Positions 11,929 to 64,000 are shown, counted from the first letter of the stretch. The stretch: DNA of 64,000 nt from an uncultured Candidatus Binatia bacterium (GCA_964291295.2 OZ219754.1:1440001-1504000); one strand, 5' to 3'. Notes: generated by a model not told the origin, from the sequence alone. Program-made: numbers and translations.

Positions 11929-12570
11929 CTACCGCGGCACCGGCCGGCTCAGACAGCGAAGCCCGGTTTCGTCGTCCAGGGCATACCAGAACCGACCGCC
12001 GTTCAGGGCCAGGCATCCTGGCCTGAACGGGACGGGAATACGCTCCGCCACCCGCTCGCGCACCGGGTCGTAGCGGATAAACGCGAAGACCGCCTGGTGT
12101 TCATCGCTCCAGTCCCCGAGGGGTCCGGGGTCGCATTCGACACACCAGAGTTCGTCGTCGTGCGAAGTCGGGCTGAAGGTCTGGTGCTCCATGCGGATGG
12201 TCCACAGGGTTCGCCCGTTCTCCGGGTCCATGCAGAACAGCTTCCGGTTGCGCCGGTGGCTGAGCCACAGCCGGCCCTTGACCACCGTCGCGCCGGCGGC
12301 GGCACCGTCCGGGCAGTCGAAGCGGCGCATGACCCGTTTCCGTTCAGGCGACCAGAGGAGCAGCTGCTGTCCCAGCCGGCCACCGCCGGCGACCAGCCAC
12401 ACGCCGTCGCTCGACGGACAGGCGTACCGGACACCGGGAAGCGACAGGACCTGCTCGCAGGACTGGCGGACCGGGTCATGGACGATCACGATGGACGCAT
12501 CCGCGGACGCGAGCCACAGGCGGCCCCGGTGCCACTGCATGCCCGTGATGAGGACTGACCGGATGTCCAT
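11929..12570 (-). CDS. Hypothetical protein, probable beta-propeller repeat fold
   Basis: Only the C-terminal 213 aa (from MDIRSVLITG) of track ORF 11929..13587 look protein-like; repeated 'G.LW' blade-like motifs (GRLWLA, GVWLV, GRLWLS, ELWCV, GRFWY). Confidence 0.5.
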   Translation of the reverse strand: MDIRSVLITGMQWHRGRLWLASADASIVIVHDPVRQSCEQVLSLPGVRYACPSSDGVWLVAGGGRLGQQLLLWSPERKRVMRRFDCPDGAAAGATVVKGRLWLSHRRNRKLFCMDPENGRTLWTIRMEHQTFSPTSHDDELWCVECDPGPLGDWSDEHQAVFAFIRYDPVRERVAERIPVPFRPGCLALNGGRFWYALDDETGLRCLSRPVPR

Positions 12571-13046
12571 CCTTCGCCTTGTATCAGAAACAGGTGCGCG
12601 CGGTGCGGGTCTGCCTCGTCGTCCGGGTCGAAGGCCGATTGCGGCCCGCGGGGAGTCATCCGGGAGTGTGCGCCGCCGGAGGCCTCGGGAGGTGGCCGGC
12701 AGGGACACATCCGTCCGGATTCTCGTCCAGGATGCCGGAAATTCGCTGTCGTGTCCCATTGTCGAACAGAAACAGGGTCTCCATATCGGGCGCCCGCCGG
12801 CTCTTGACAGGGTGGGGCGCCTGTGGGCAAGACGGGGAGGGTTGCGCCGACTGCCGGAGTATTTCACGGCAACTCCCGTGTTGCCGGCCGTACATGTTGT
12901 TTCGGGTCGTACATCTGCTTGCACGGGCTGCCTCACTATGGTAAGGCTTGATCCGACATGGAGCCGGTGTACGTGCGCCGTACTTTCACATATTGCACAT
13001 ATCTGGACACGGAGCGTTCGCCGGGGTCCGTTTGCGGGATCAGGAA

Positions 13047-13116
13047 GGTTTGAGGCCGTCAGTTTCAAGCCGCTGGTTTGAGGCGGTCGGTTTGAGGCCG
13101 TCGGTTTCAGGCGGTC
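13047..13116. repeat. 5 x 14-nt degenerate tandem repeat (GGTTTGAGGCCGTC)
   Basis: Units at 13047, 13061, 13075, 13089 and 13103. Confidence 0.85.
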
Positions 13117-13183
13117 ATTGAAACGCTCAGTTGGCGACGGTTGTTCAGGGACGGTTGGTGGACGTTTTTGTGTTGCGTTACAT

Positions 13184-15770
13184 GAGACGGGATGTTCAAG
13201 AGCTTCGTCCCGAAGCTGTTTCTGAAGGCGAAAGGAGAGTTCGGACATGAGAAAGATGAGGATGTTGGTGCACAAGAATCTGGCGGCGGTCTGTTGCGCC
13301 ATCATGTTCGCCTTCGGGCTTGCGGCATGCAGTAGCAGCAGCAACAACAAGACGGTGGTGACCGAAGCCGAGAAAACCATAAATACGGCCCGTACGGGGG
13401 CCATGAGTGCGGCGACGGCGGCCAAGACGGCGTCGGACAACGCCAAGGAGGCGGTCGATGAGGCGGACGCGGCGGTCATGGCTGTTGCCCCCATTTTTAC
13501 GATGACGGGCGGCGATGACGGCACCGTGAATCTGGCCGGCCTGGTGAAGGAGGGCCGCGATGCGGCCGGCATGGCGGAGGAGTACAATCAAGAGACCAAG
13601 ATGGAGTCCGACAAGGCTGCGGCCGCGGAAACGGTGACGGCGGCAGCCGATGCCAGGGCGAAAGCGGAGTTGGCCCAGGAGAAAGCCGAAGCCCAGGCGC
13701 GGATAGCCGCTGAAAAGGCCAAGATGGCGACGGATGCCGCCGCGAAGGGAATCAAGGTCTCCGGCGATACGGACATGGCGAGGACGTACGGTTTCGGCGA
13801 CACTTCCATCACTCCCGCCGCCTTGCCCAAGAAAAATTCGGACACGAGTGTGGTCAACGGCAAGACGGTCACGAAGACGACGGGCCTCATAGGTACGGCC
13901 GACGGCCACGCCCCCATGGTGGATGTCGCCGCAGTCATGTACCTGGCCAAGAGCGGCAGTACTCCGGAGCGCAAGGCCAAGCCGGCGATCGAGAAACGGA
14001 CGTTTACGTTCGCCAAGGCATACGACTCGGCAGACGACGGAAGCCGCCTCTGGCTCGCCACCCAGTATGCCGCTGGCAGGGCCGTGCACACGTTCCGTGA
14101 CACCTCTGGCTCGCTCGATCTCGAAAAGACCGACGATGCGACATGGGGCGCTCACGATCATGACAGCGACTCCAGTACGGCGAAGCTGAAGGTGATGAAG
14201 GCGACCGGCATGTTCTACATGGCCTCCGGCTCGGGGGCTTTTGACCAGACGAACCCCTCGAGCGCCACGATCGAGGACGAAACGAAGGTGAACAAGGATA
14301 TCTTCTACTACCAACATCCCACCGAAGGGAAAAAGTGGTTGAGGCGGACCCAGTCCGTGACCCCCACAGGCGAAGCGACCACTCATACCTATATGAACGT
14401 GAGCGTCGTCGAGAATGTCATGGGCTTTCCGGTGGCGACCGACTACATACATGTCAACTACGGCATATGGATCGGCAATCTGAAGGCCGACGGTGACGAC
14501 AGCGACGCCGACCTTACCGAACTTGGCACGGGGTTTGCCTCTGCCAAGGCGGGCAAAGGCATGACCGGGGAGATGCCGGACTCCGGCACGGGCACCTACA
14601 AGGGCTCTTATCTCGTGTCCTATCGCAAGGCCCACGCGGATGGCAACGGCAGCCTCATGTCCAGTGCGAATCACTCGACAGTGACGGCGGACTTCGCGAA
14701 GGCGACCGTGATGGTCGATTTGCATTCCCTCGCCAAGCTTGAGGGCACAATCGCCGGGGACAGGTTCTCGGGAACCAAGGTCTCCAGCGTGACCGGTATG
14801 GTGGGCGAGACAGCGGTTCTGACGGCAAGTGCGGACGGCAGCGGTTACACGGGCAGTTTCAGCGGCGGTTTCTTCGGACCCCAGGCGGCGGAAGTCGGCG
14901 GCGTGTTCTCCTACACGTCGAAGGACAAGAAGAATGGCGAATTCCGTGGCTCCTTCGGCGGAGCCAAGTAGCAGGTCGTCGTCGGTTCACTGAGTGGGGC
15001 GCGCTGTCCATCTCCGGACCGGGCGCCTCGCATCGTGGCGGCTGACGGGCGGAAGCCACGCGGTTCCGGGCAATGATCGCCAAGGTTGTTTTCGCCGGGA
15101 CCGTTTGGGGACGTTCCACGAGACAGGATGTTCAAGGGCTTCGTCCCGAGGCTGTTTCTGAAGGCGAAAGGAGAGTTCGGACATGAGAAAGATGAGGATG
15201 TTGGTGCACAAGATGGTACACAAGAACTTGGCGGCGGTCTGTTGCGCCGTCATGCTCGCCTTCGGGCTTGCGGCATGCAGTAGCAGCAGCAACAAGACGG
15301 TGGTGACCGAAGCCGAGAAAACCATAAATACGGCCCGTACGGGGGCCATGAGTGCGGCGACGGCGGCCAAGACGGCGTCGGACAACGCCAAGGAGGCGGC
15401 CGATGAAGCGGACGCGGCGGTCATGGCTGTTACCCCCATTTTTACCATGACGGGCGGCGGTGACGATCCCGTGAATCTGGCCGGCTTGGCGAAGGAGGCC
15501 CGCGATGCGGCCACCAACGCGGAAAAGTACAATCAAGAGACCAAGACGGAGTCCGACAAGGCCGCGGCCGCGGAAACGGTGACGGCGGCAGCCGACGCCA
15601 GGGCGGCAGCGGAGTTGGCCCAGGAGAACGCCGAAGCCCAGGAGCGGATAGCCGCCGAAAAGGCCAAAATGGCGAAGGATACCGCCGCGATGGGAATCAA
15701 GGTCTCCGGCGATACGGATATGGCGAGGACGTACAGTTTCGGCGACACGTCCATCACCCCCGCCGCCTTG
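13184..15770. repeat. About 640-bp direct repeat (13184-13825 vs 15120-15770) covering leader, RBS, signal peptide and stalk of lipoproteins 1 and 2
   Basis: Both start GAGAC(G/A)GGATGTTCAAG.GCTTCGTCCCGA.GCTGTTTCTGAAGGCGAAAGGAGAGTTCGGACATGAGAAAG and stay highly similar to ...ITPAAL. Confidence 0.9.
13247..14971 (+). CDS. Surface lipoprotein 1 with TbpB-like C-terminal beta-barrel (putative Slam cargo)
   Basis: AAGGAG RBS; lipobox GLAA-C28; Ala-rich stalk; NYG.W, GTYKG, VTADF, GTI.GDRFSG, GGFFGPQAAEVGGVF and GSFGG motifs typical of transferrin-binding-protein-like barrels. Confidence 0.8.
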   Translation: MRKMRMLVHKNLAAVCCAIMFAFGLAACSSSSNNKTVVTEAEKTINTARTGAMSAATAAKTASDNAKEAVDEADAAVMAVAPIFTMTGGDDGTVNLAGLVKEGRDAAGMAEEYNQETKMESDKAAAAETVTAAADARAKAELAQEKAEAQARIAAEKAKMATDAAAKGIKVSGDTDMARTYGFGDTSITPAALPKKNSDTSVVNGKTVTKTTGLIGTADGHAPMVDVAAVMYLAKSGSTPERKAKPAIEKRTFTFAKAYDSADDGSRLWLATQYAAGRAVHTFRDTSGSLDLEKTDDATWGAHDHDSDSSTAKLKVMKATGMFYMASGSGAFDQTNPSSATIEDETKVNKDIFYYQHPTEGKKWLRRTQSVTPTGEATTHTYMNVSVVENVMGFPVATDYIHVNYGIWIGNLKADGDDSDADLTELGTGFASAKAGKGMTGEMPDSGTGTYKGSYLVSYRKAHADGNGSLMSSANHSTVTADFAKATVMVDLHSLAKLEGTIAGDRFSGTKVSSVTGMVGETAVLTASADGSGYTGSFSGGFFGPQAAEVGGVFSYTSKDKKNGEFRGSFGGAK

Positions 15771-16943
15771 ACCGGCAAGAAGGTGGAGACGAGGCTGGTC
15801 AACGGCAAGGAAGTCACGCTGTCGACGAATCTCATAGGCGATTTCAAGGTTTCCCTCAAGGAGGACGTTGCTGGAGTCGAGGGTACGGCTGCGTCAGGGG
15901 GTACCCCGGAGGTCAAGGCCAAGCCGATAATCGAAGCACGCGAGACCTTGGTCGGGAAGATATACGACTCGGCGGACGACAAGACCCGCCTCCTGCTCTT
16001 CACCCACTACACCGGCAGCAAGGTCGTAGGCGCGTACCGCACAGTCAACACCAAGACGGTCGAGGGCAAAGTGACCCCCAATGCGGAACACGGCGAGTAC
16101 GATCATGATAATGATGACGAAACGCCTAGCTTGAAGGTGATGAAGGCGGCCGGTGAGTTCTACCTGGTCACCGGCTCGGGGGCTTTGAGCGCGAGCAGTC
16201 ACACCGACAAGATCGAGAAGGCCACGAAGGCCACCCCGATCTACTACTACACCGAACCCGCCGAGGGATCGACGCCGAGCAAGAAGATCTGGATCGTGCG
16301 AAGCAAGACCAAAGACGAAGCCGGAACGATCACATACGAATACCAGGACGTGAGTGTCGTCGAGAACGTCAAGGGCTTTCCGGTGGCGACTCCCTATCAG
16401 CATCTCAATTACGGCATGTGGATTGGCAATCTGAAAGCCAATGGTGATGACAGCGATGCCGACCTTGCCGAACTCGGAACGGCGTTTGTCGTTGCCAAGG
16501 CGGGCGGCAAGGGTATGACCGGCGGTGACATGCCGGCCAGCGGCACGGCCACCTATGACGGCCATTACGTCGTGACATTTCGCGCCAAGAAAGCGACAGG
16601 CGACGGTCGCTTCCATTACAGGTCGGATCACTCGACATTGACAGCAAATTTCGCGAATGACACCGTCATGGTCGATCTGTACGGCCTCGCCACACTCGAG
16701 GGCACCATCAAGGGCGACTGGTTCTCGGGAACCAATGTTTCCGGGGTCGCTCCGCTGAGCGACAAGCCAGCCAATGATTTTCTTGAGGCGGACACGAGCG
16801 GTGCCAATTACACGGGCACGTTCAGCGGCGGCTTCTTCGGACCCAAGGCTGCGGAAGCCGGCGGCGTGTTCGACTACACGTCGGAGGGCAGGAAGAAGGG
16901 CGAATTCCGCGGAGCCTTCGGCGGAGTCAAGCAGGCGGAGTAG
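15183..16943 (+). CDS. Surface lipoprotein 2 (paralog), TbpB-like barrel
   Basis: Near-identical 5' third to copy 1; same barrel motifs (GGFFGPKAAEAGGVF...GAFGG). Confidence 0.8.
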   Translation: MRKMRMLVHKMVHKNLAAVCCAVMLAFGLAACSSSSNKTVVTEAEKTINTARTGAMSAATAAKTASDNAKEAADEADAAVMAVTPIFTMTGGGDDPVNLAGLAKEARDAATNAEKYNQETKTESDKAAAAETVTAAADARAAAELAQENAEAQERIAAEKAKMAKDTAAMGIKVSGDTDMARTYSFGDTSITPAALTGKKVETRLVNGKEVTLSTNLIGDFKVSLKEDVAGVEGTAASGGTPEVKAKPIIEARETLVGKIYDSADDKTRLLLFTHYTGSKVVGAYRTVNTKTVEGKVTPNAEHGEYDHDNDDETPSLKVMKAAGEFYLVTGSGALSASSHTDKIEKATKATPIYYYTEPAEGSTPSKKIWIVRSKTKDEAGTITYEYQDVSVVENVKGFPVATPYQHLNYGMWIGNLKANGDDSDADLAELGTAFVVAKAGGKGMTGGDMPASGTATYDGHYVVTFRAKKATGDGRFHYRSDHSTLTANFANDTVMVDLYGLATLEGTIKGDWFSGTNVSGVAPLSDKPANDFLEADTSGANYTGTFSGGFFGPKAAEAGGVFDYTSEGRKKGEFRGAFGGVKQAE

Positions 16944-17079
16944 TCGGAGTAGTAACAGATCGCCGTCATCGGCGGCGGTTCACGGAGCGAGGCGTCCGGC
17001 GGGACGAAGCCTAGACGCTTGCTGAATGCGTCCTGTGATGCTGCCGGAGGGAAGTTCCGCGCCAAGGAGTTCGAGAACG

Positions 17080-18894
17080 ATGAGGATATTGATGTACGGA
17101 ATGATGCACGGAATGATGCACGGGATGATGAACAGGAACTTGGCGGCGGTCTTCTGCGCGGTGGTGTTGGCCTTCGGGCTGGCGGCATGCGGCGGCAGCA
17201 GCAACAACAACCGGACCCCGGCGACGACCCCGGATCTGCCGCCGGCGGGGCCGACGGCAGTGGAGACGGCGATCAAGGAGGCCCGGACATCGGCGATGGC
17301 GGCGTCGGGCAAGGCCAAGACGGCGTCGGACAACGCGGGGACGTCGGCGGATGAGGCGGAAGCGGCGATCCTGGGTGTCGTGCCCGTTTTCACTCCCAAG
17401 GGGGAGATGACGGCGAAGAGCTACGCGGATGCGGCCCGGACGGCGGCGGACATGGCGAAGGCGGAGTACGACAAGGCCAAGATGGAGTCGGACAAGGCTG
17501 CGGCCACGAGCGACTTGAGTGTGGCGGCCGAGGCCGAAGTCGCAGCCGAGGCGGCGCAGGCGAAGGCGGAGGCTCAGGCGGCGATGGCCGCGGAAAAGGC
17601 GAAGATGGCGAAGGAGGCCGCGGCCAAGGAGGTTCGGCATGTCGAGGGGATGACCTACGGGTACGGCGACACGACCATCACGGCGGGTGCACCCTATGCC
17701 AAGCTCACGACCGGGGGCAAGACCATCGAGACCGGCAAGCGCGGCGGCATCAACGAGGCCTCACGGGATTTTCGAAAGGAACCGGTCCGATACGTGAAGG
17801 CAACCGAAAGCAAGCCGGAGGTGGTTTCCCGGACGGGAATCCATGCACGGACCATCCCGGTCGGTTCCTACAACGACTCGGAGAAGTCCCGTTTCTGGCT
17901 GGTCGAAAAGTATGTCACCAACACCAAGGGGGTGAAGGCCTACCGCAGGGCGAAGGACGCCAGCGATCAGCCCATCAACGTGACCGCCCCGATCACGGTC
18001 GAGAACCCGTTCGGTTCGGTCACGGTAGGGGAAAAGACCTACAAGGTCATGCGGGCGGAGGGGGAGTTCCATATTCTTGATACCCCGGAGTCGAAGAAAC
18101 TGGACAAGACGAATGCCTGGGACTGGATCAATGGGGGCACCAAGGACGCGAATGCGGGCGTGGGCGTCTACTACTACAACAACGGCAGCAAGGACATCTA
18201 TCTTCTGCGCACCGGAACGAGCGGGACCGACAACTTCACCTACCGGCAGATTTTCGTCTACGATGTGCCGGATTTCCCGGAGGCGAGGCCCTATGAGCAC
18301 ATGAACTACGGGATGTGGCACACGCAGAAGTCAGGCAGGACCAACCTTGGCATCTCATTCGTCACGGTGCTGCCCGATGGCGAGGGCATGACCCCGGCGG
18401 CCAACATGCCAGGCTTCGGCAGCGCCACCTACAGGGGTCATGCAGTCTGGCAACGCCGCGACCCGCACGCTCAAGGCGAAGGAGGTATCGGCGGTCATGA
18501 GGGGAACTCAACCACGACGGTGGATTTCGGGAAAAGCACCATCAAGACCAATATTTTTGACTGGCACTACACGTCGCAAGGCGGATCCAACGGGATTCTC
18601 GCCACATTCCACGGCACCATCGACGGGAACGGGTTCTCGGGCAGCAAAGTGACCAATGTCAACGCCGAAGGCGCCGGCTACGATACGCCGGGGTTTTTTG
18701 CTGGCTATCAGGCCCGCCATCGTACTGCATCGAAGCTGGCCACGAGCGTGGACGGCAGCCTGTAGTACGAGGTGAGGGAGTACCGCGGGAATTTCTTCGG
18801 GCCGGACGCCGAAGAGGTGGGCGGCGTGTTCGACATCACGTCCAAGGACAAGAAGAACGGCGAGTTGCGCGGCTCCTTCGGCGGCCGCAGGTAG
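17080..18894 (+). pseudogene. Surface lipoprotein 3 interrupted by in-frame TAG at 18763-18765
   Basis: AAGGAG RBS and lipobox GLAAC. After the TAG the same frame continues YEVREYRGNFFGPDAEEVGGVFDITSKDKKNGELRGSFGGRR* (18766-18894), homologous to the C-termini of copies 1 and 2. Confidence 0.75.
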
Positions 18895-18932
18895 TAAACA
18901 GGTCGCCGTCACCGGCGGTGGTTCACGGAGCG

Positions 18933-18973
18933 GGGCGCCCGATCCATCTCCGGATCGGGCGCCCTTTTCTTTT
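18933..18973 (+). terminator. Intrinsic terminator between lipoprotein 3 and the Slam-like gene
   Basis: Perfect 13-bp stem GGGCGCCCGATCC / GGATCGGGCGCCC, loop ATCTCC, followed by TTTTCTTTT. Confidence 0.8.
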
Positions 18974-18999
18974 CCAGACAGCTGCCAGGGAGGCTGTGG

Positions 19000-20325
19000 A
19001 TGCACGTTTACATGAGTCTGGTTGGCACAATACTGCTCGCGCTGGTTCTGGCGACCGCGCCCGCGGAGGGCCAGCAGCCGCCTCCGGAGCTGTCCGCCGA
19101 GGCGCTGATCGATGCCGCACGGGCGGCCTTGGCAAAGGGCGAGCCGGAAGACGCCGCGTTCCTGCTCGACGGTGTGAAACCGGGCGAGGGGAACCCCGAC
19201 GATCTCGATTTTCTGCGCGGCTCCATCGCGATGCAGCGCGGGGAGTGGCAGGAGGCGATCGCACGGTTCCGGGCGATGCTGGCGCGCAATCCCGATCTGC
19301 CCCGGGTGCGGCTTGACTTGGCGTTGGCCTATTTTCAGGCGGAGGATGACGGCAATGCGGCCTATCATTTCCGCCTGGCGCTGGGTGCGAAGGACCTGCC
19401 CGAGACGGTGCGCGCCTCGGCGCTCGCTTTCCTCGACCGCATCCGGCGGCGCAAGCGATGGTCGGTTACCGGCTCGGTGGCGGTTGTGCCCGACACCAAC
19501 ATCAACGCCAGGACCGATGCCCGGGAGATCCTCCTGTTCGGCAGCCAGCGGGCTACGCTATCGGATGATGCGCGCCGGACCAGCGGCGTCGGGGTGAATG
19601 TCAACATGTCGGGCGGTTACGAAGGGCGGGTTTCGCCCGACCTGCGGTTCCGGGTCGGCGGCGGGCTCCAGACGCGAACCTACCGGGAGAGTGATTTCAA
19701 CGAACAGATCGTCAACCTGTACGCCGGGCCGCGCTTCCTGTTCGACAAGTTCGACCTGCGTCCCGACGTGACCGCGCGGCAGCGCTGGCTCGGCGGCACC
19801 GCCTACAGCTTGGCGCTGGGTATCGGGCTTTCGGGCAATTGGCTTGTGGGGCAGACATGGCGGCTGGGCGCGTCGCTCAGTCGCGAGCGGATCGACTACG
19901 AGGAGGGCAATCTCGGCGAGGGCAACCTCGATTCCGTCGGGCTCAACCTCACCCATGCGCTGGACAAGGCGACGCTGTTGCGGGCCGACACCGCATGGAG
20001 CAGTGAGACGCTGGACCTGGACACCCATTCCTGGCGCGAGTTCCTCGTCGGATTGACGGTTTCGCGCGAGTTGCCCCTGGGCTTCGTGGCCAGCGGGGGG
20101 ACCACCTGGCGCTGGCGCCGATACGGCGCGGCTCATCTCTTGTACGGCCCGGAGGCGCGGCGGGAACGGACGCTTGCCCTGCGCAGCACGCTGTCCAACC
20201 GGAATGTCGAGATTTTCGGCTTCATGCCCGAAATCGCCCTGCGCCACGAGCGGCGGGACAGCAACGTCGCGTACTACGACTACACGCGCACGGTTGGCGA
20301 ACTCGGCATGGTCAGGACATTCTGA
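19000..20325 (+). CDS. Slam-like (DUF560, type XI secretion) outer-membrane translocon: N-terminal TPR plus beta-barrel
   Basis: Signal peptide; TPR (AIARFRAML..NP...RVRLDLALAYF...A.YHF); PDTNIN motif; amphipathic strands; RDSNVAYYDY.R and terminal Phe; adjacent to TbpB-like lipoproteins. Confidence 0.8.
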   Translation: MHVYMSLVGTILLALVLATAPAEGQQPPPELSAEALIDAARAALAKGEPEDAAFLLDGVKPGEGNPDDLDFLRGSIAMQRGEWQEAIARFRAMLARNPDLPRVRLDLALAYFQAEDDGNAAYHFRLALGAKDLPETVRASALAFLDRIRRRKRWSVTGSVAVVPDTNINARTDAREILLFGSQRATLSDDARRTSGVGVNVNMSGGYEGRVSPDLRFRVGGGLQTRTYRESDFNEQIVNLYAGPRFLFDKFDLRPDVTARQRWLGGTAYSLALGIGLSGNWLVGQTWRLGASLSRERIDYEEGNLGEGNLDSVGLNLTHALDKATLLRADTAWSSETLDLDTHSWREFLVGLTVSRELPLGFVASGGTTWRWRRYGAAHLLYGPEARRERTLALRSTLSNRNVEIFGFMPEIALRHERRDSNVAYYDYTRTVGELGMVRTF

Positions 20326-20589
20326 CGGTCAAGGCCCGTACCGGGACCGCCCGGGCCGTCGCTGGCGCCGGAAAAATCGCCTGACCCGCCACGGGCGCAG
20401 CCGATTCACGCGCGTGGCCGGTCAGGTGCCGGCGGGAGAGGAGACGGTGCTGACGCGGTAATCCGGAACGATGCCGCAACTCCGGGTGAATCCTGTGGAA
20501 GACCCGGGAGTTCAGCCAGGCGGAAACCGCGGCAGGCCCCAAGGCCGCCCGTGCCACACCCGAAAGGGCTGCGGACAGGGAGATGCGAC

Positions 20590-21309
20590 ATGTCCGACAA
20601 GGTTCTTCTCGACAAGGTGGGCGAGACCGCGAGGATCACGCTCAACCGCCCGGAGAAGGGGAATGCCGTCGACGCCGAGTTGATGGCCGGGCTGATGGAG
20701 AGCCTGGCCCGGGTTGCAGGCCACCCCACCCTCCGGGTGCTGGTTCTCGAGGGCAGGGGAGAGCACTTCTGTGCCGGGCGGGAGGCGGACGCGCCCAAGC
20801 CCGGGAACGCCTCGGAGTTTGCCGAGGCTCTGAGCCGCATCGTCCGGGCCAACCGGCTGTTGCAGTCATTCCCGGGGATCAGCCTGGCGGTGGTGCGGGG
20901 AAAGGCCTTCGGCTTCGGCTGCGGGCTGGCGGTGCAAAGCGATGTGACATTGGCTGCGGAGGATGCCCGGTTCGCGTTCCCGGAGATCAACGCCGGCTTT
21001 CCGCCCACCATCGTCATGTCCTATCTGAGCCGGTGGATTCACCGGAAGAAGGCGCTGGAGCTGGTCATGACCGGGGGCGAGATCAGTGCCGCGGAGGCCG
21101 AGCGGCAGGGTCTGGTCAATCGCGTGGTTCCGCCAGACCGGCTGGCGGATGAGGAAAAACGCTGGATGGAAATGCTGGCGGGCCGCGACCTCAAGGGACT
21201 TCAGGCGACCAAGGCGTTTTTCAGGGACACCGCCGAGTGGTCCACCGAAGCGGCGGCACAGTACGGGGTGACGCGGTTGGCCAACTTTTTCGCAAGCCGG
21301 GACGGCTAA
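20590..21309 (+). CDS. Enoyl-CoA hydratase/isomerase family protein
   Basis: ITLNRPEKGNA, FCAG, AFGFGCGLA, FPEI..G and EA...GLVN motifs. Confidence 0.88.
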   Translation: MSDKVLLDKVGETARITLNRPEKGNAVDAELMAGLMESLARVAGHPTLRVLVLEGRGEHFCAGREADAPKPGNASEFAEALSRIVRANRLLQSFPGISLAVVRGKAFGFGCGLAVQSDVTLAAEDARFAFPEINAGFPPTIVMSYLSRWIHRKKALELVMTGGEISAAEAERQGLVNRVVPPDRLADEEKRWMEMLAGRDLKGLQATKAFFRDTAEWSTEAAAQYGVTRLANFFASRDG

Positions 21310-59412: not shown

Positions 59413-59937
59413 ATGGCAACGAACGGGAAACGAGAGATAAAGAGAGGCATCTGGAGCCGCCGGGATTTCTTCGGCCGGCTCGGCTGGACCGGCTTCGGCG
59501 TGTTCTCGCTGGTCTCCCTCTTCGCCTTCATGCGCTCCGCGTTTCCGCGGGTGCTCTTCAAGCCGCCTTCGACCTTCAAGGCGGGCTTTCCCTCCGACTA
59601 CACCGTCGGCGAGGTGAGCGAGAAGTTCAAGAAGGACTATCGCGTGTGGATCGTGCGCGAAGAGGCGGGATTCTACGCGGTCTTCGCCAAGTGCACGCAT
59701 CTCGGCTGCACGCCGCGCTGGCTGGCGGCCGAGAGCAAGTTCAAGTGCCCCTGTCACGGCAGCGGCTTCTTCAAGTCGGGACTGAACTTCGAGGGGCCGG
59801 CCCCGCGGCCGCTGGACCGGTTCGAGATCGCCCTAGCGGAGGATGGGCAGCTCATCGTGGACAAGTCCAGGGAGTTCCGCATGGGGCCCAGCGGCGAGCC
59901 GGACGAGCAACATCCCGAAAGCATCCTCAAGGTTTGA
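59413..59937 (+). CDS. Rieske iron-sulfur subunit of a Rieske/cytochrome b complex
   Basis: Tat-like SRRDFF plus TM; CTHLGC and CPCHGS boxes; GPAPRPL. Confidence 0.93.
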   Translation: MATNGKREIKRGIWSRRDFFGRLGWTGFGVFSLVSLFAFMRSAFPRVLFKPPSTFKAGFPSDYTVGEVSEKFKKDYRVWIVREEAGFYAVFAKCTHLGCTPRWLAAESKFKCPCHGSGFFKSGLNFEGPAPRPLDRFEIALAEDGQLIVDKSREFRMGPSGEPDEQHPESILKV

Positions 59938-59944
59938 GACGGAC

Positions 59945-60715
59945 ATGATCAACTTCGAACAGATCAAGAAGGACGTCGTCGAGAGCCATATCTGGAAGTC
60001 GATCTTCCGGCACGGCTACGAGGACACGCCGCGCAACCGCGTGCTCATGGTGACGGGCAACGTGTGGATGCACCTGCATCCCGCCAAGGTCCGCAAGCAT
60101 GCCGTGCGCATGCGCTTCACCTGGTGCATGGGGGGCCTCACCTTCCTCATGTTTCTCCTGACGGTGGTGACCGGCATCTATCTCATGTTCTACTACCGGC
60201 CGGTGCCGCAATACGCCTACGCGGACATGAAGTATCTGGAGTTCGACATGCCCTTCGGGATGTTGATGCGCAACATGCACCGGTGGGCGGCCCACGCCAT
60301 GGTGATCTTCGTGTGGCTGCACATGTTCCGGGTCTTTCTCACCGGCTCCTACAAGCCGCCGCGGGAGTTCAACTGGATCGTCGGCGTGCTGCTGCTGGTG
60401 CTGACCCTGCTGTTGAGCTTCACCGGCTACCTGCTGCCCTGGGACCAGCTGGCCATCTGGGCGGTGACGGTGGGCTCCAACATGGCGCGCGCCACGCCGC
60501 TGCTGGGGCATGAAGGACCCTTCGCCGAGTTTGTCGGCGCCAATCCGGTGTACGATGCGCGGGCGTTCCTGTTCGGCGGCGGCGAGATCGGTCCCCACAC
60601 CCTGCTGCGGTTCTACATACTCCACTGCATCTTCATTCCGCTGGTGGCCAGCCTGCTCATGGCGGTGCACTTCTGGCGCATCCGCAGGGACGGTTTTTCC
60701 GGTCCCCCACTGTAG
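59945..60715 (+). CDS. Cytochrome b, N-terminal (b6-like, split) subunit
   Basis: WCMGG, MHRWAAH, WLHMFR, FTGYLLPWDQ, RFYILH and VHFW motifs. Confidence 0.92.
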   Translation: MINFEQIKKDVVESHIWKSIFRHGYEDTPRNRVLMVTGNVWMHLHPAKVRKHAVRMRFTWCMGGLTFLMFLLTVVTGIYLMFYYRPVPQYAYADMKYLEFDMPFGMLMRNMHRWAAHAMVIFVWLHMFRVFLTGSYKPPREFNWIVGVLLLVLTLLLSFTGYLLPWDQLAIWAVTVGSNMARATPLLGHEGPFAEFVGANPVYDARAFLFGGGEIGPHTLLRFYILHCIFIPLVASLLMAVHFWRIRRDGFSGPPL

Positions 60716-60766
60716 TTTCCGGTTCGACCACGCGGATTCATCGTCTCAGGGAAAGGTAGCCACCGT

Positions 60767-61537
60767 ATGGCTGAGGCCGAGGAAAGAAGCCGGGCGATCG
60801 TCGTCGACGACAAGATCCATACCTGGCCGCATCTCGTTCGCGGCGAGTTTCTGGTCACGATCTTCGTGATGGTGGCCATGGGGCTGTGGTCGCTGCTGGT
60901 GGACGCGCCGCTGGAAGAGCCCGCCAATCCGGCCCGCACTCCCAACCCGTCCAAGGCGCCGTGGTATTTCCTCGGCCTGCAGGAGATGCTGGTGTACTTC
61001 GACCCTTGGTACGCCGGGGTGGTGCTGCCGACGTTCATCATCATCGGGCTGATGGTGATCCCCTTCATCGACATCAACACCAAGGGCAACGGCTACTACA
61101 CCTTCAAGGACCGCAAGTGGGAGATCCTGACCTTCTTCATCGGGTTCCACATCCTCTGGGTGGTCACCATCATCATCGGGACGTTTTTCCGCGGCCCCGG
61201 ATGGAACCTGTTCTGGCCGTGGCAGAGGTGGGACCCCCACAAGGTGGTGGCGTTGACCAACGTGGACCTGCCCTACCTCGTGGGGCTGCGGGACTACTGG
61301 GCCCAGGCCGGCTTCGGGCTGTTCCTGGTGCTGCTCTACTACGTGGTTTCGGTGTGGCTGTTCTACAAGTGGATCATCTGGATCAAGGGCAGGGAGTTCA
61401 TGGTCCGGTGGGGTGCCGTCCGGTTCGCGATCACCTCCTTTCTCTTCGTGACCATGATGGGGCTGCCGGTGAAGATGTTTCTGCGGCTGGTGTTCAACAT
61501 CAAGTACATCATGGTCACGCCCTGGCTCAACATCTGA
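60767..61537 (+). CDS. Cytochrome b C-terminal (subunit IV-like) protein
   Basis: PANP..TPNPSKAPWYF (PEWY-equivalent) and several TM helices. Confidence 0.85.
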   Translation: MAEAEERSRAIVVDDKIHTWPHLVRGEFLVTIFVMVAMGLWSLLVDAPLEEPANPARTPNPSKAPWYFLGLQEMLVYFDPWYAGVVLPTFIIIGLMVIPFIDINTKGNGYYTFKDRKWEILTFFIGFHILWVVTIIIGTFFRGPGWNLFWPWQRWDPHKVVALTNVDLPYLVGLRDYWAQAGFGLFLVLLYYVVSVWLFYKWIIWIKGREFMVRWGAVRFAITSFLFVTMMGLPVKMFLRLVFNIKYIMVTPWLNI

Positions 61538-61542
61538 ACCGT

Positions 61543-61580
61543 TGATTCAGAATCGCTGATTCAGATTCACTGATTCAATA
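61543..61580. repeat. About 2.7 x 14-nt tandem repeat (TGATTCAGA.TC.C)
   Basis: Units at 61543, 61557 and 61571. Confidence 0.7.
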
Positions 61581-61584
61581 TCCG

Positions 61585-61752
61585 ATGTTCTATGTAGCAA
61601 AGCTGCTCCAGGCCCTGGGTATCGCCGACGTGGGTTACGCGGTGTTCGTGGGCATCTTTCAGGGCATCGCCATGGCCGAGGAGATCATCCTGACGCTCAT
61701 CGGCGTGGCGGTGTTCTCGCTCGGGCGTCTGCTGGAGAGCAAGGCGGCCTGA
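61585..61752 (+). CDS. Small two-TM membrane protein (55 aa), not in the ORF track
   Basis: MFYVAKLLQALGIADVGYAVFVGIFQGIAMAEEIILTLIGVAVFSLGRLLESKAA*; GC-rich third positions; lies inside the respiratory operon. Confidence 0.65.
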   Translation: MFYVAKLLQALGIADVGYAVFVGIFQGIAMAEEIILTLIGVAVFSLGRLLESKAA

Positions 61753-61796
61753 CACCCGGTCGAGACAGATTCTCTGCGCGCTGTAAGGGAGAATGA

Positions 61797-64000
61797 ATGG
61801 CGGTTCGCGGCGTAGATCCCAACGAAGAGAAGAAGTCCTACGGGGCAGTCTTTTTCGTAGGCTCCATTCTTCTGGTGGTGGTGGCCCTGTGGGCGGTGTT
61901 CGACGACAACATCACCCGGCGGGTGTGGAAGATCCATCAGACCGAGTTCATCCGCACGGATTACGAACGCGCCGCCGCGGCATTGGCCAGGGAGCAGGAG
62001 CGACTGAACGCGGACCCCAAGTACCAGGAACTGGTGAAGAGGCGCGACGCCGAGTTGCGGAGCCTCGACAGCGGCGAGAAGGGTGAGCGGCTGGCGGAGA
62101 TGAAGGAGCTTCAGCAGCAGGTGGAGGTCGAATACTTCGACGCCGATCAGGAGGTCAAGTTCGTCAAGAGCCAGCAGGAGGAGGCGTGGTACGAGTTCGA
62201 CCACGCCGTCCAGCAGGGCCGGGACGCGGGTCCGTACCGGAAGCACATCACGGAGTTGGAAGAAATCCAGCACTCGCTGGAGCCCGCGCTGGCGGCGGCC
62301 CGCAGGAAGCGCGCGGATGTCAAGGCGGAGATCAGGGAAGTCGGCAGCGCCCTGAAGGCCATCGAGGAACAGCTTTACGGGATGGAGGGCGAGATACGGA
62401 AGGCGCGGCGCCAGATGGACAACGCCACGGTCACCGTCGGCCCGGAGGGTTTCCCGCAGTTTACCCTCTACAAGGTTCCCAAGATCGAGCAGGTGGTGCT
62501 CAAGGATTTCGACCGCAACAATTTCGACCAGCAGGTGGACAGGGTGGACCGTTGCCAGAGTTGCCACATCGCCATCAACCGCGCCGGATTCGATGACCTG
62601 CCGCATCCCCTGAAGACGCACCCCCGGCGCAGGGTCTTCCTGGGCGACGCGGCGCATCCGCCCCGCATCTACGGCTGCACCGCCTGCCATGAAGGACAGG
62701 GGGAGGCTGTCAACAGCCTGGCCCAGGCCCACGGCAATGTGAAGTTCTGGGAACATCCGCTGCTTGAGGGCAACGACGTGCAGGCCAACTGCATTACCTG
62801 TCATCTGAACGTCCAGGGTCTGGAGGGCGCCGAGGTGGTGGCGCACGGGCAACGGATCTTCGAACAGGTGGGCTGCACCGGTTGTCATCTGGTGGAGGGC
62901 TACGACGACATTCCCAAGGTCGGCCCCAGCCTCAGAAAGGTCCGCGCCAAGGTGGATCCCGCCTGGATGGTCCAGTGGATCCAGGATCCGCGCGCATTTC
63001 GGCCGCACACCCGCATGCCGCACTTCTACTTCAATGAGGAGGAGGCGGTGGCCGCGGCCTCCTATCTGTGGGCTGCGTCGAAGCAGGAAGCCGATGCCTG
63101 GCTCCAGCAGTCGCCCATGCCGGAAGGGTACCGGCCGGGCGACGCGGCCATGGTCGAGAAGGGCAGGGAGCTGGCCCGCGCGGTGGGTTGCCTGGGATGC
63201 CACGGACTGGCCGAAGGCGAGTTCACCACGCGCATCGCGGGCAAGGACCTGGTGCCGAACCTGAAGGACATCGCCGCCAAGGCGAACCCGCGCTGGACCT
63301 ACCACTGGCTGCGGAATCCCAAGGGCTACAACCCGGACACCCGGATGCCGAGCCTGCGGCTGTCGGACGACGAGGCGCTGGCGCTGACCACCTACCTGAT
63401 GACGCTGGGCTCCAGGCCCGAGCCGGACGCCGGGATGGTGGCCCGCCTTGAGCAGCCCGACAACATCGCCAGGGGCGAGAGGCTGGTGCGAAAGTACGGA
63501 TGCGCCGGCTGTCACGACATCCCGGGGATGGAAAAGGAGTCCCGCATCGGCGTCGAACTCACGACGTTCGGCTCCAAGCCGCTGGAGGAGCTGTTCTTCG
63601 GCAACGATACGACCATCAAGCACACCTGGAAGGATTGGACCTTCAACAAGATCCGCAATCCGCGGGTGTATGCCACGGAGCGGGTGGAGCAGTTGATGCC
63701 CCACTTCGATCTGCCCGATGAAGACATCAAGGCCCTGCGGGTGCTGCTGCATGGTTTCGTGGAGCGGAAGGTGCCCGAGGCATTCAAGGCGGATCACTCC
63801 GAGCGGGCGCGGCATATCCTGGCGGGGCGCCGGCAGATCCAGGAGTACAATTGCGTGGGCTGCCACGTCATCAACGGCGAGGGCGGATACGTTGCAAAGT
63901 ACTACGAGGAGAACCCGACCCTTGCCCCGCCGATGCTCAACGGGCAGGGCGAGAAGGTTCAGGCCAACTGGCTGTTCGGCTTCCTGCAGAACCCGGAAAC
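61797..64000 (+). CDS. Membrane-anchored multiheme cytochrome c (at least 7 CxxCH), truncated by the window end
   Basis: Open frame from ATG 61797 (GGGAG RBS) to the end. N-terminal TM and coiled coil; CxxCH at 62553, 62676, 62790, 62874, 63189, 63501 and 63852; repeated W...P.......MP motifs. Confidence 0.9.
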   Translation, partial: MAVRGVDPNEEKKSYGAVFFVGSILLVVVALWAVFDDNITRRVWKIHQTEFIRTDYERAAAALAREQERLNADPKYQELVKRRDAELRSLDSGEKGERLAEMKELQQQVEVEYFDADQEVKFVKSQQEEAWYEFDHAVQQGRDAGPYRKHITELEEIQHSLEPALAAARRKRADVKAEIREVGSALKAIEEQLYGMEGEIRKARRQMDNATVTVGPEGFPQFTLYKVPKIEQVVLKDFDRNNFDQQVDRVDRCQSCHIAINRAGFDDLPHPLKTHPRRRVFLGDAAHPPRIYGCTACHEGQGEAVNSLAQAHGNVKFWEHPLLEGNDVQANCITCHLNVQGLEGAEVVAHGQRIFEQVGCTGCHLVEGYDDIPKVGPSLRKVRAKVDPAWMVQWIQDPRAFRPHTRMPHFYFNEEEAVAAASYLWAASKQEADAWLQQSPMPEGYRPGDAAMVEKGRELARAVGCLGCHGLAEGEFTTRIAGKDLVPNLKDIAAKANPRWTYHWLRNPKGYNPDTRMPSLRLSDDEALALTTYLMTLGSRPEPDAGMVARLEQPDNIARGERLVRKYGCAGCHDIPGMEKESRIGVELTTFGSKPLEELFFGNDTTIKHTWKDWTFNKIRNPRVYATERVEQLMPHFDLPDEDIKALRVLLHGFVERKVPEAFKADHSERARHILAGRRQIQEYNCVGCHVINGEGGYVAKYYEENPTLAPPMLNGQGEKVQANWLFGFLQNPE

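Follow-up and report, generated by a model that had tools for sequence, protein, structure and literature searches.

A predicted type 11 secretion locus with a multi-copy family of stalked TbpB-barrel lipoproteins in an uncultured Candidatus Binatia bacterium

To our knowledge, work on Slam (surface lipoprotein assembly modulator) translocons and the type 11 secretion systems (T11SS) that they define has dealt almost entirely with animal pathogens and Xenorhabdus. What, then, would such a system display in an uncultured Candidatus Binatia bacterium? The question is raised by a 64,000-nucleotide (nt) stretch of this organism's DNA (GCA_964291295.2 OZ219754.1:1440001-1504000; hereafter the window), in which three tandem lipoprotein genes, here called cargo 1 to cargo 3, are followed by a Slam-like gene. 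A preliminary description, made from the sequence alone, had proposed that this gene encodes a translocon and that the lipoproteins upstream of it are tandem TbpB-barrel paralogues. We found all four genes where that description had put them, and family matches, predicted folds and the same cargo-then-Slam order in other genomes support the proposal. Taken whole, a type 11 secretion (Slam) surface-display locus is the best explanation of these data, and we give it a probability of about 85%.

A Slam-type translocon behind three lipoprotein genes

The locus consists of four co-oriented open reading frames (ORFs; Table 1), the third of which, up to its first in-frame stop, extends from 17026 to 18765 (579 amino acids). 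The product of the fourth, 19000-20325, scores 90.3 bits with SlipAM (PF04575, formerly DUF560), for which the cut-off is 22 (E = 2.1e-25, covering positions 1-278 of the 288-position profile), and 39.7 bits with TPR_Slam (PF24575; cut-off 35.2, E = 7.3e-10); generic tetratricopeptide repeat (TPR) families match too. In its AlphaFold 2 (AF2) model, built from 38 aligned homologues (predicted local distance difference test (pLDDT) 84.3, predicted template modelling score (pTM) 0.77), helices at residues 33-151 are followed by 14 long strands at residues 154-440. The DUF560-like domain is present, and the 14-stranded outer-membrane barrel that had been expected of this product is predicted by the model. 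Its Foldseek neighbours are the TPR-plus-barrel exporters BcsC and PelB and the 14-strand barrels FadL and OmpG; neither the PDB sequence search nor the listed Foldseek matches included a Slam entry.

The three upstream products have the make-up that had been read from the sequence. In each, a basic n-region leads into a hydrophobic stretch and a GLAAC lipobox, assigned by pattern, after which come a Ser/Asn linker (SSSSNNK, SSSSNK or GGSSNNN) and a helical stretch of about 127-131 residues that is 50-56% Ala, Lys and Glu. All three C-termini match TbpB_B_D (PF01298) above its cut-off of 26 bits (54.5, 52.0 and 36.1 bits; E = 2e-14, 1e-13 and 1e-8), in agreement with the barrel domains predicted for them. 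Cargo 2 is 66% identical to cargo 1, and both are 40-45% identical to the other paralogues of the genome, the figure for cargo 2 being 40-43%. A PDB sequence profile search with the cargo found LbpB and TbpB (7e-17 to 1e-5), with the similarity confined to the barrel.

The AF2 model of cargo 1 (12 aligned family members, pLDDT 77.3) contains helices at residues 40-78, 96-126 and 130-166, a beta-rich middle at about 167-427 and a C-terminal barrel at 428-573. The barrel alone aligns to the C-barrels of NHBA and fHbp with Z 13-14 and a root mean square deviation (rmsd) of 2.1-2.5 Å; together with the PF01298 matches, this predicted fold bears out the 8-strand barrel anticipated at the cargo C-termini. 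When the model was aligned to known structures as a second look, residues 76-574 matched the TbpB C-lobe, hemophilin, HphA, HpuA and fHbp with Z 13-15.6 (rmsd 3.2-4.6 Å over about 170-209 residues). The highest values for this handle-plus-barrel lobe are those for the TbpB C-lobe (Z 15.6), hemophilin (7re4, Z 15.5) and HphA (8gm3, Z 15.4), and Foldseek and VIA matches, with Z 13-15.6 and rmsd 3.2-3.6 Å over about 200 residues, comprise TbpB, LbpB, HpuA, fHbp, NHBA, hemophilin and HphA. Look-alikes in the ESM Atlas are solely TbpB_B_D clusters, with scores below 0.9. The modelled cargo has a single lobe, not the two lobes and TbpA-type receptor gene that mark bilobed TbpB.

The N-terminal stalk, earlier taken for one helix of about 130 residues rich in Ala, Lys and Glu, has that composition and that length, but the model divides it into three helices of 31-39 residues. 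Residues 30-166 align to Trypanosoma brucei surface proteins that form three-helix bundles (5vtl, Z 16.2; 6xz6, Z 13.2); helical bundles commonly reach about Z 13 by chance arrangement. Because of the AF2 helices and these three-helix-bundle fold matches, the stalk is best read as a three-helix pedestal about 55-60 Å long, in all likelihood a bundle. Helices 1 and 2 are joined by a loop that lies inside the range aligned to the lobe proteins and therefore seems to give strands to the handle.

Seventeen paralogues and one intact cognate Slam

The array had been called expanded, which understates it. The source genome (G000; 3.70 Mb, 3 contigs) has 21 TbpB_B_D matches and 3 SlipAM matches, and a profile built on the full-length family picks out 17 loci that are near full length, along with fragments. 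The GLAAC lipobox is present in 16 of the 17, the three window cargoes among them (cargo 3 with an internal stop), and the remaining locus, 2270409, has lost its signal-peptide frame. Fifteen paralogues have open frames of about 574-614 codons with lipobox and barrel end intact. The family falls into four subfamilies: A, confined to the window, is made up of cargo 1 and cargo 2; B comprises cargo 3 and four others; C has four copies, of which three form a tandem array at 1549460-1555119; and D has six, one of which stands at the end of that array.

Parts of the locus recur around the genome. Window positions 17074-20109, from cargo 3 to about codon 370 of the Slam gene, are repeated at 1432031-1435060 with 95% nucleotide identity, and parts of this segment occur at five other places. 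The window Slam is the sole intact copy of its type; six decayed copies (Table 1) are frameshifted, deleted or truncated, retain 69-94% amino-acid identity in pieces, and each adjoin a cargo paralogue or cargo fragment. Three of the six share the same frameshift points and the same right end (about codon 370), and were therefore copied after the damage. A second Slam type, 34% identical to the first, lies at G000:C1:884769-885857. Homologues of Skp and LolA were found in the genome.

The lack of a TonB-dependent receptor gene beside the array, noted earlier from the window, is reinforced at the scale of the genome: there is one PF00593 (TonB-dependent receptor) match genome-wide, at 3,120,351, and the nearest paralogue, at about 2,797,000, is some 320 kb away from it.

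Cargo 3 is interrupted by an in-frame stop

The open frame of cargo 3 spans 622 codons with one TAG when read through, and the 42 codons after the TAG (18766-18891), in the same frame, encode the barrel end. The barrel motif (NFFGPDAEEVGGVF...GSFGG) that had been reported for all three lipoproteins is present in gene 3, but it sits beyond the TAG, at 18766-18894. Accordingly, PF01298 is matched over profile positions 1-102 of 126 before the TAG and over all 126 when the frame is read through. Gene 3 reads CTG TAG TAC where all five compared paralogues read CTG TAC, and the stop is therefore ascribed to a 3-bp insertion. The bin of the TAG site is covered by short Logan contigs from two runs of a single study, which list no indel; these runs may be the assembly's own source and lend the TAG little support, and variants are not excludable by contigs. 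The leader of cargo 3 is also without 45 nt found in its closest paralogues, and the first ATG of those paralogues is ACG in gene 3; an AGGAG and a later ATG are still present.

Cargo 3 is probably a pseudogene or the source of a truncated product. One proposed model puts a Slam specificity motif at the cargo C-terminus (PMC9090332; here and below, statements from the literature refer to excerpts of the cited papers), so a product ending at the TAG would be without that motif.

Related loci in distant bacteria indicate horizontal transfer

We next asked how widely the family occurs. A word-indexed search of 5.8 billion proteins with cargo 1 found 12, of which 8 come from the source genome. A profile search of 1.84 billion cluster representatives gave 1712 matches at E <= 1e-3 and 257 at E <= 1e-30, the 257 family representatives being 50%-identity clusters. 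Forms of the family reach 991 amino acids and combine long repetitive Ala-rich helical regions with a lipobox. Taking one genome per species, we located relatives at 18 loci, which belong to metagenome-assembled genomes (MAGs) of Candidatus Poriferihabitaceae, Gammaproteobacteria, Alphaproteobacteria and Hoeflea and to Nitratireductor sp. XY-223. At 8 of the 18, and in a genome of the same genus as the source (G012), a Slam 53-69% identical to that of the window lies directly 3' of the cargo; a cargo gene adjoins a Slam gene in the window and at nine related loci in other genomes. Five relative genomes contain 9 (G041), 1, 2, 6 and 16 (G045) cargo matches at E <= 1e-30, and the genome with nine has a single Slam.

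Within the genus the family is sparse. Among its 28 genomes, the full-length cargo family is found only in the source genome (17 copies), G008 (2) and G012 (1), and Slams at least 60% identical to that of the window occur only in these three genomes and, broken, in G010; other members of the genus have Slams of the second type, with 27-37% identity. In a sample of the phylum, 40 of 301 genomes have a SlipAM match, mostly a weak one. A maximum-likelihood tree of 28 Slams splits the two types with support 100. The clade of the window Slam (Shimodaira-Hasegawa-like approximate likelihood ratio test (SH-aLRT) 98) has named rows that are all Slams of Pseudomonadota MAGs, alpha- or gammaproteobacterial, bar the G008/G012 pair. 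A phylogeny of the translocon had been suggested as a check, and in it the window Slam groups with the Pseudomonadota MAG Slams and not with the same-genus copies. The approximately unbiased (AU) test rejects a same-genus clade with p = 6e-9 (four rows) and p = 8e-6 (three rows), for a group that was chosen after the tree had been seen and in which G010 sits on a long branch. Because the tree and the AU tests split the window Slam from the same-genus copies, they indicate that the cargo-Slam module was acquired by horizontal transfer.

The result is a sizeable cargo family tied to Slam machinery, of which Pfam covers the barrel only. Its standout traits are the 9-17 copies in several genomes, the apparent movement between distant bacteria and the lack of a TonB-dependent receptor partner. 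Judging by the names of the relatives, if these can be trusted, the family may be relevant to the way in which sponge symbionts present themselves to their host; we found no literature that joins 'surface lipoprotein assembly modulator' and 'sponge'.

A proposed display pathway and its precedents

By analogy with the Neisseria and Moraxella model, Sec would export the lipoproteins, which would be lipidated at Cys28 and then ferried through the periplasm by Lol while Skp serves as holdase. At the outer membrane, the Slam barrel would recognise the C-terminal barrel end of the cargo and thread the cargo through, leaving it lipid-anchored on the cell surface. Displayed in this way, each protein would consist of a flexible Ser/Asn(/Pro) linker, a helical pedestal and a single hemophilin/TbpB-like handle-plus-barrel lobe, the variable loops of which most likely bind an external macromolecule or the surface of a host or of another organism nearby; less likely as a ligand is a siderophore-type nutrient passed to a TonB-dependent receptor. 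The window Slam is probably the translocon, acting in trans, of each of the roughly 15 intact paralogues. In evolutionary terms, a horizontally acquired cargo-Slam module would have multiplied by segmental duplication, after which the redundant Slams and one cargo copy, gene 3, decayed.

Several characterised systems provide precedents for parts of this scheme. Slam homologues have been reported across all clades of Proteobacteria, delta included (PMC5449769), and T11SS have been described throughout Proteobacteria (PMC8406197). For Slam1, a translocon that Skp assists, a specificity motif at the C-terminus of the cargo has been proposed (PMC9090332). Close parallels are Slam1-TbpB and Slam2-HpuA of Neisseria and Moraxella (PMC5449769, PMC9090332), which share with the window a translocon composed of TPRs and a DUF560/SlipAM barrel, a cargo gene directly upstream, and a lipoprotein cargo that has a beta handle and ends in an 8-strand TbpB_B_D barrel; there, too, one Slam can serve several cargoes. 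Unlike TbpB, the window cargo is single-lobed, as HpuA is, and has a three-helix N-terminal domain. The window also differs from the Neisseria and Moraxella loci in having no TonB-dependent receptor nearby, 17 paralogues to one intact Slam, and closest relatives that are environmental or symbiont MAGs.

Around ten cargo architectures have been distinguished, all of them combining a beta pedestal with an N-terminal effector and a C-terminal barrel; the N-termini of some are alpha-helical (PMC12282271). One Pls-like T11SS lipoprotein with a large alpha-helical region was shown to reach the surface of E. coli only together with its T11SS partner (PMC12282271). The Pls-like cargo that is paired with TepS in Haemophilus parahaemolyticus (PMC12282271) resembles the window cargo in its large helical region, beta 'pedestal' and C-terminal barrel. 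Compared by description only, its EEARKA-type repeat helix differs from the window helices, which lack repeats and are most likely packed into a compact bundle; longer relatives of the window family do have repeated helical units. Hemophilin and HphA (7re4, 8gm3, 6om5) are the best structural matches of the lobe (Z 14.7-15.5 over about 200 residues), but they are soluble haem-binding proteins with a TonB-dependent receptor partner, in contrast to the lipidated window cargo with its helical domain and no receptor gene nearby. The pedestal in turn resembles the metacyclic ISP (5vtl) and the factor H receptor (6xz6) of T. brucei, elongated three-helix bundles on lipid-anchored surface proteins; the organisms and the anchors are unrelated, and we take this as a resemblance of fold, with no claim of homology.

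The locus fits the known T11SS scheme of Grossman et al. 2025 (PMC12282271). To that scheme it adds a cargo family that is not described in the excerpts compared here, an extreme ratio of cargo to translocon with reciprocal decay of the duplicated parts, cargo without a receptor partner, and evidence of transfer between distant lineages.

Some of our results weigh against this account of a displayed, Slam-dependent family. The cargo proteins fall short of the NCBIfam equivalog NF041636 (slam_lipo), a 154-position model that describes small cargo: cargo 1 and cargo 2 score 46.0 and 42.8 bits against a cut-off of 80, cargo 3 is unmatched, and they are therefore not members of that equivalog. Co-transcription of cargo 3 and the Slam gene is not assured, because a strong terminator-like hairpin lies between them. 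The second, unrelated Slam type could serve some of the paralogues instead of the window Slam. With hemophores (hemophilin and HphA) among the closest folds, a nutrient role stays in contention. Values of dN/dS near 1 (below), taken with the broken copies, could equally fit relaxed constraint in a decaying family. To these we add the choice of the same-genus group after inspection of the tree, mentioned above.

What the displayed proteins might bind

The role that we prefer for the family is that its members, displayed at the surface, would bind a macromolecule of a host or of the environment, as the architecture of the cargo and its genomic setting suggest. With its copy numbers, its movement between distant bacteria and its lack of a receptor partner, the family offers concrete candidates for type 11 secretion roles beyond iron piracy, and the 15 intact cargoes with a single intact cognate translocon are convenient for tests of Slam specificity.

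Nutrient capture, in which the surface paralogues would bind haem, metals or another nutrient and pass it to an uptake system, is the role that known cargoes bring to mind, since most characterised Slam cargoes act in metal or haem uptake (PMC8406197, PMC12282271), and the lobe aligns to hemophilin and HphA as well as it does to the TbpB C-lobe. We nevertheless regard it as unlikely here: the sole TonB-dependent receptor match lies far from every paralogue, 17 diverging copies exceed the need for a single nutrient, and all copies are lipidated, not soluble.

The number and divergence of the copies suggest another possibility, namely an antigenic or phase-variation repertoire in which a conserved anchor and stalk bear swappable heads that evade host phagocytes, phages or predators, with the broken copies serving as donors. 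Nei-Gojobori estimates, averaged over regions, were obtained for 13 paralogue pairs. The ratio of non-synonymous to synonymous divergence (dN/dS) is 0.18-0.77 in the helices (below 1 in all 13 pairs), 0.13-1.38 in the handle (above 1 in one pair) and 0.60-1.41 in the barrel (above 1 in three). The family had been termed diversifying, which finds moderate support in the higher region averages of barrel and handle. Synonymous divergence (dS) between cargo 1 and cargo 2 is mosaic, at 0.105 in the helices, 0.49 in the handle and 0.45 in the barrel, a pattern that fits 5' gene conversion or a mosaic origin; in the tandem subfamily C array it is 0.023 in the helices and 0.07-0.20 in the barrel. Besides this mosaic divergence and the three barrel values above 1, a variable coat would account for the same 5' leader on most paralogues, the tandem repeats 5' of cargo 1 and of one relative (both described below), the fragments and pseudogene copies in the genome, and the multi-copy sets of 9 and 16 in G041 and G045. 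We found no switching mechanism, however: no invertase, no frame-shifting coding repeat and no single expression site. The 12-nt coding repeats stay in frame, and Logan contigs list no indel at the locus, so that a variable coat is a doubtful reading as well.

A fuller version of the same idea, a horizontally exchanged, multi-copy variable coat of bacteria of marine animal hosts, with conserved lipid anchor and three-helix-bundle pedestal, fast-diverging and recombining heads, one hub Slam for all copies and broken copies as donors, strikes us as rather improbable. If true, it would be a bacterial counterpart of the three-helix-bundle receptor coats of trypanosomes and would bear on host recognition or on evasion of phagocytosis and phages. 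That the family goes back to a horizontally acquired cassette which multiplied by duplication and is now being eroded, retaining little function today, is highly improbable: six of the seven window-type Slam copies are broken, cargo 3 has its internal stop and leader deletion, paralogue 2270409 lacks its signal-peptide frame, and handle and barrel dN/dS lie at 0.6-1.4 in many pairs (region averages), but 15 paralogues keep open frames, lipobox and barrel end, helical dN/dS stays below 1 throughout, one Slam of the type is kept intact, and the family is large elsewhere, with its 257 representatives. Binding of a macromolecule at the cell surface remains the role that we favour, for a family that may be partly in decay.

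Leaders, repeats and the intergenic hairpin

Upstream of cargo 1, the start that had been given for the locus, 13047, proves to be the first base of a 14-nt repeat in five copies and not a gene start; the repeat lies 130-200 nt 5' of cargo 1. In a relative (L018), a 13-nt unit (TCTTCACGGGGCC) occurs at least 8 times immediately 5' of the start of the cargo gene. Both may be regulatory or slippage-prone promoter repeats.

About 110 nt of the leader that follows the 14-nt repeat (Table 1) are kept in most paralogues of the genome, even in subfamily A, whose proteins share about 42% identity with the others, but loci of relatives in other genomes lack it. Since it is common to the paralogues of one genome only, we rejected it as an RNA element that spans lineages, and take it to reflect shared regulation or within-genome homogenisation rather than a more widespread RNA motif. 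Where cargo 3 encodes the n-region of its signal peptide, a 12-nt repeat specifies MMHG units, of which near-identical subfamily B paralogues have two or three, and several in-frame ATGs are on offer; the length of this repeat therefore changes within the genome. An Rfam scan of 12400-20700 identified no known RNA family, the sole match being a sub-threshold one to ctRNA_p42d (26.8 bits against 50) on the terminator-like hairpin. A sigma-70 promoter scan gave one match, inside the Slam start and no better than in shuffled sequence.

A 1.2-kb repeat lies 5' of subfamily B copies at G000:C1 1430837-1432025 and 2552273-2553464 (99% identical), and copies of it that are 82-85% identical flank the module at 2160871-2165560 on both sides. 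One copy has 17 consecutive G in front of it. By eye, the repeat contains no convincing transposase ORF; no family search was made of it.

Table 1. Positions of the elements of the locus in the window and, in the last row, of the decayed Slam copies elsewhere in the genome
Feature	Position	Strand	Remarks
14-nt tandem repeat (GGTTTCAGGCCGTC, 5 copies)	13047-13116	+	Tandem Repeats Finder, 75% matches, score 77
Conserved 5' leader with short hairpin (CCGCTTCTGAAGGCGG-like) beside the Shine-Dalgarno region	13140-13246	+	300-nt upstream alignment, 16 paralogues
Cargo 1 lipoprotein	13247-14971	+	574 amino acids; PF01298, E = 2.2e-14; AF2 pLDDT 77.3
Cargo 1 signal peptide and lipobox to Cys28	13247-13330	+	Ser/Asn linker follows
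Cargo 1 helices	residues 40-166 (13364-13744)	+	Predicted, AF2
Cargo 1 beta handle	residues 167-427	+	Predicted, AF2
Cargo 1 8-strand-type barrel	residues 428-574 (14528-14968)	+	PF01298; predicted, AF2
Cargo 2 lipoprotein	15183-16943	+	586 amino acids; PF01298, E = 1.3e-13
Cargo 3, subfamily B	17080-18894	+	604 codons from MRILMYG start; in-frame TAG at 18763-18765
12-nt in-frame tandem repeat, 3.4 copies	17090-17130	+	Encodes MMHG units; signal-peptide n-region of cargo 3
Intrinsic-terminator-like hairpin	18932-18965	+	14 pairs (11 G-C), then TTTCTTTTCC; between cargo 3 and Slam
Slam / T11SS outer-membrane protein	19000-20325	+	441 amino acids: signal peptide, TPR about 33-151, barrel 154-440
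Decayed Slam copies	G000:C1 1433979-1435063, 164302-164856, 1842004-1842607, 1849997-1850689, 2161782-2162557, 2555366-2556240		

Codon usage and the end of the window

Codons of the locus had been described as ending in A or T more often than those of flanking genes, which is weakly borne out. The G+C content at third codon positions (GC3) is 0.80, 0.78 and 0.84 in the three cargo genes and 0.84 in the Slam gene, against 0.83-0.905 in six neighbouring genes and 0.831 (standard deviation 0.059) in the genome, for which a crude set of 1436 ORFs served as reference; the values are inside the genome spread. At first codon positions, G+C is 0.55-0.56 against 0.62-0.73, and the lower total G+C comes mainly from these positions, reflecting amino-acid composition. 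Codon usage was rejected as a sign of foreign origin, GC3 being within one standard deviation of the genome mean.

Close to the end of the window (59843-64000), G+C dips to 0.59-0.64 over ORFs for very hydrophobic, membrane-type proteins (59843-60715 and 60767-61537). The dip also takes in an ORF from 61797 onward with several CxxCH motifs, which suggest a multihaem cytochrome c. These products resemble cytochrome b-type subunits by eye only, without a family search, and this end of the window looks like ordinary respiratory machinery.

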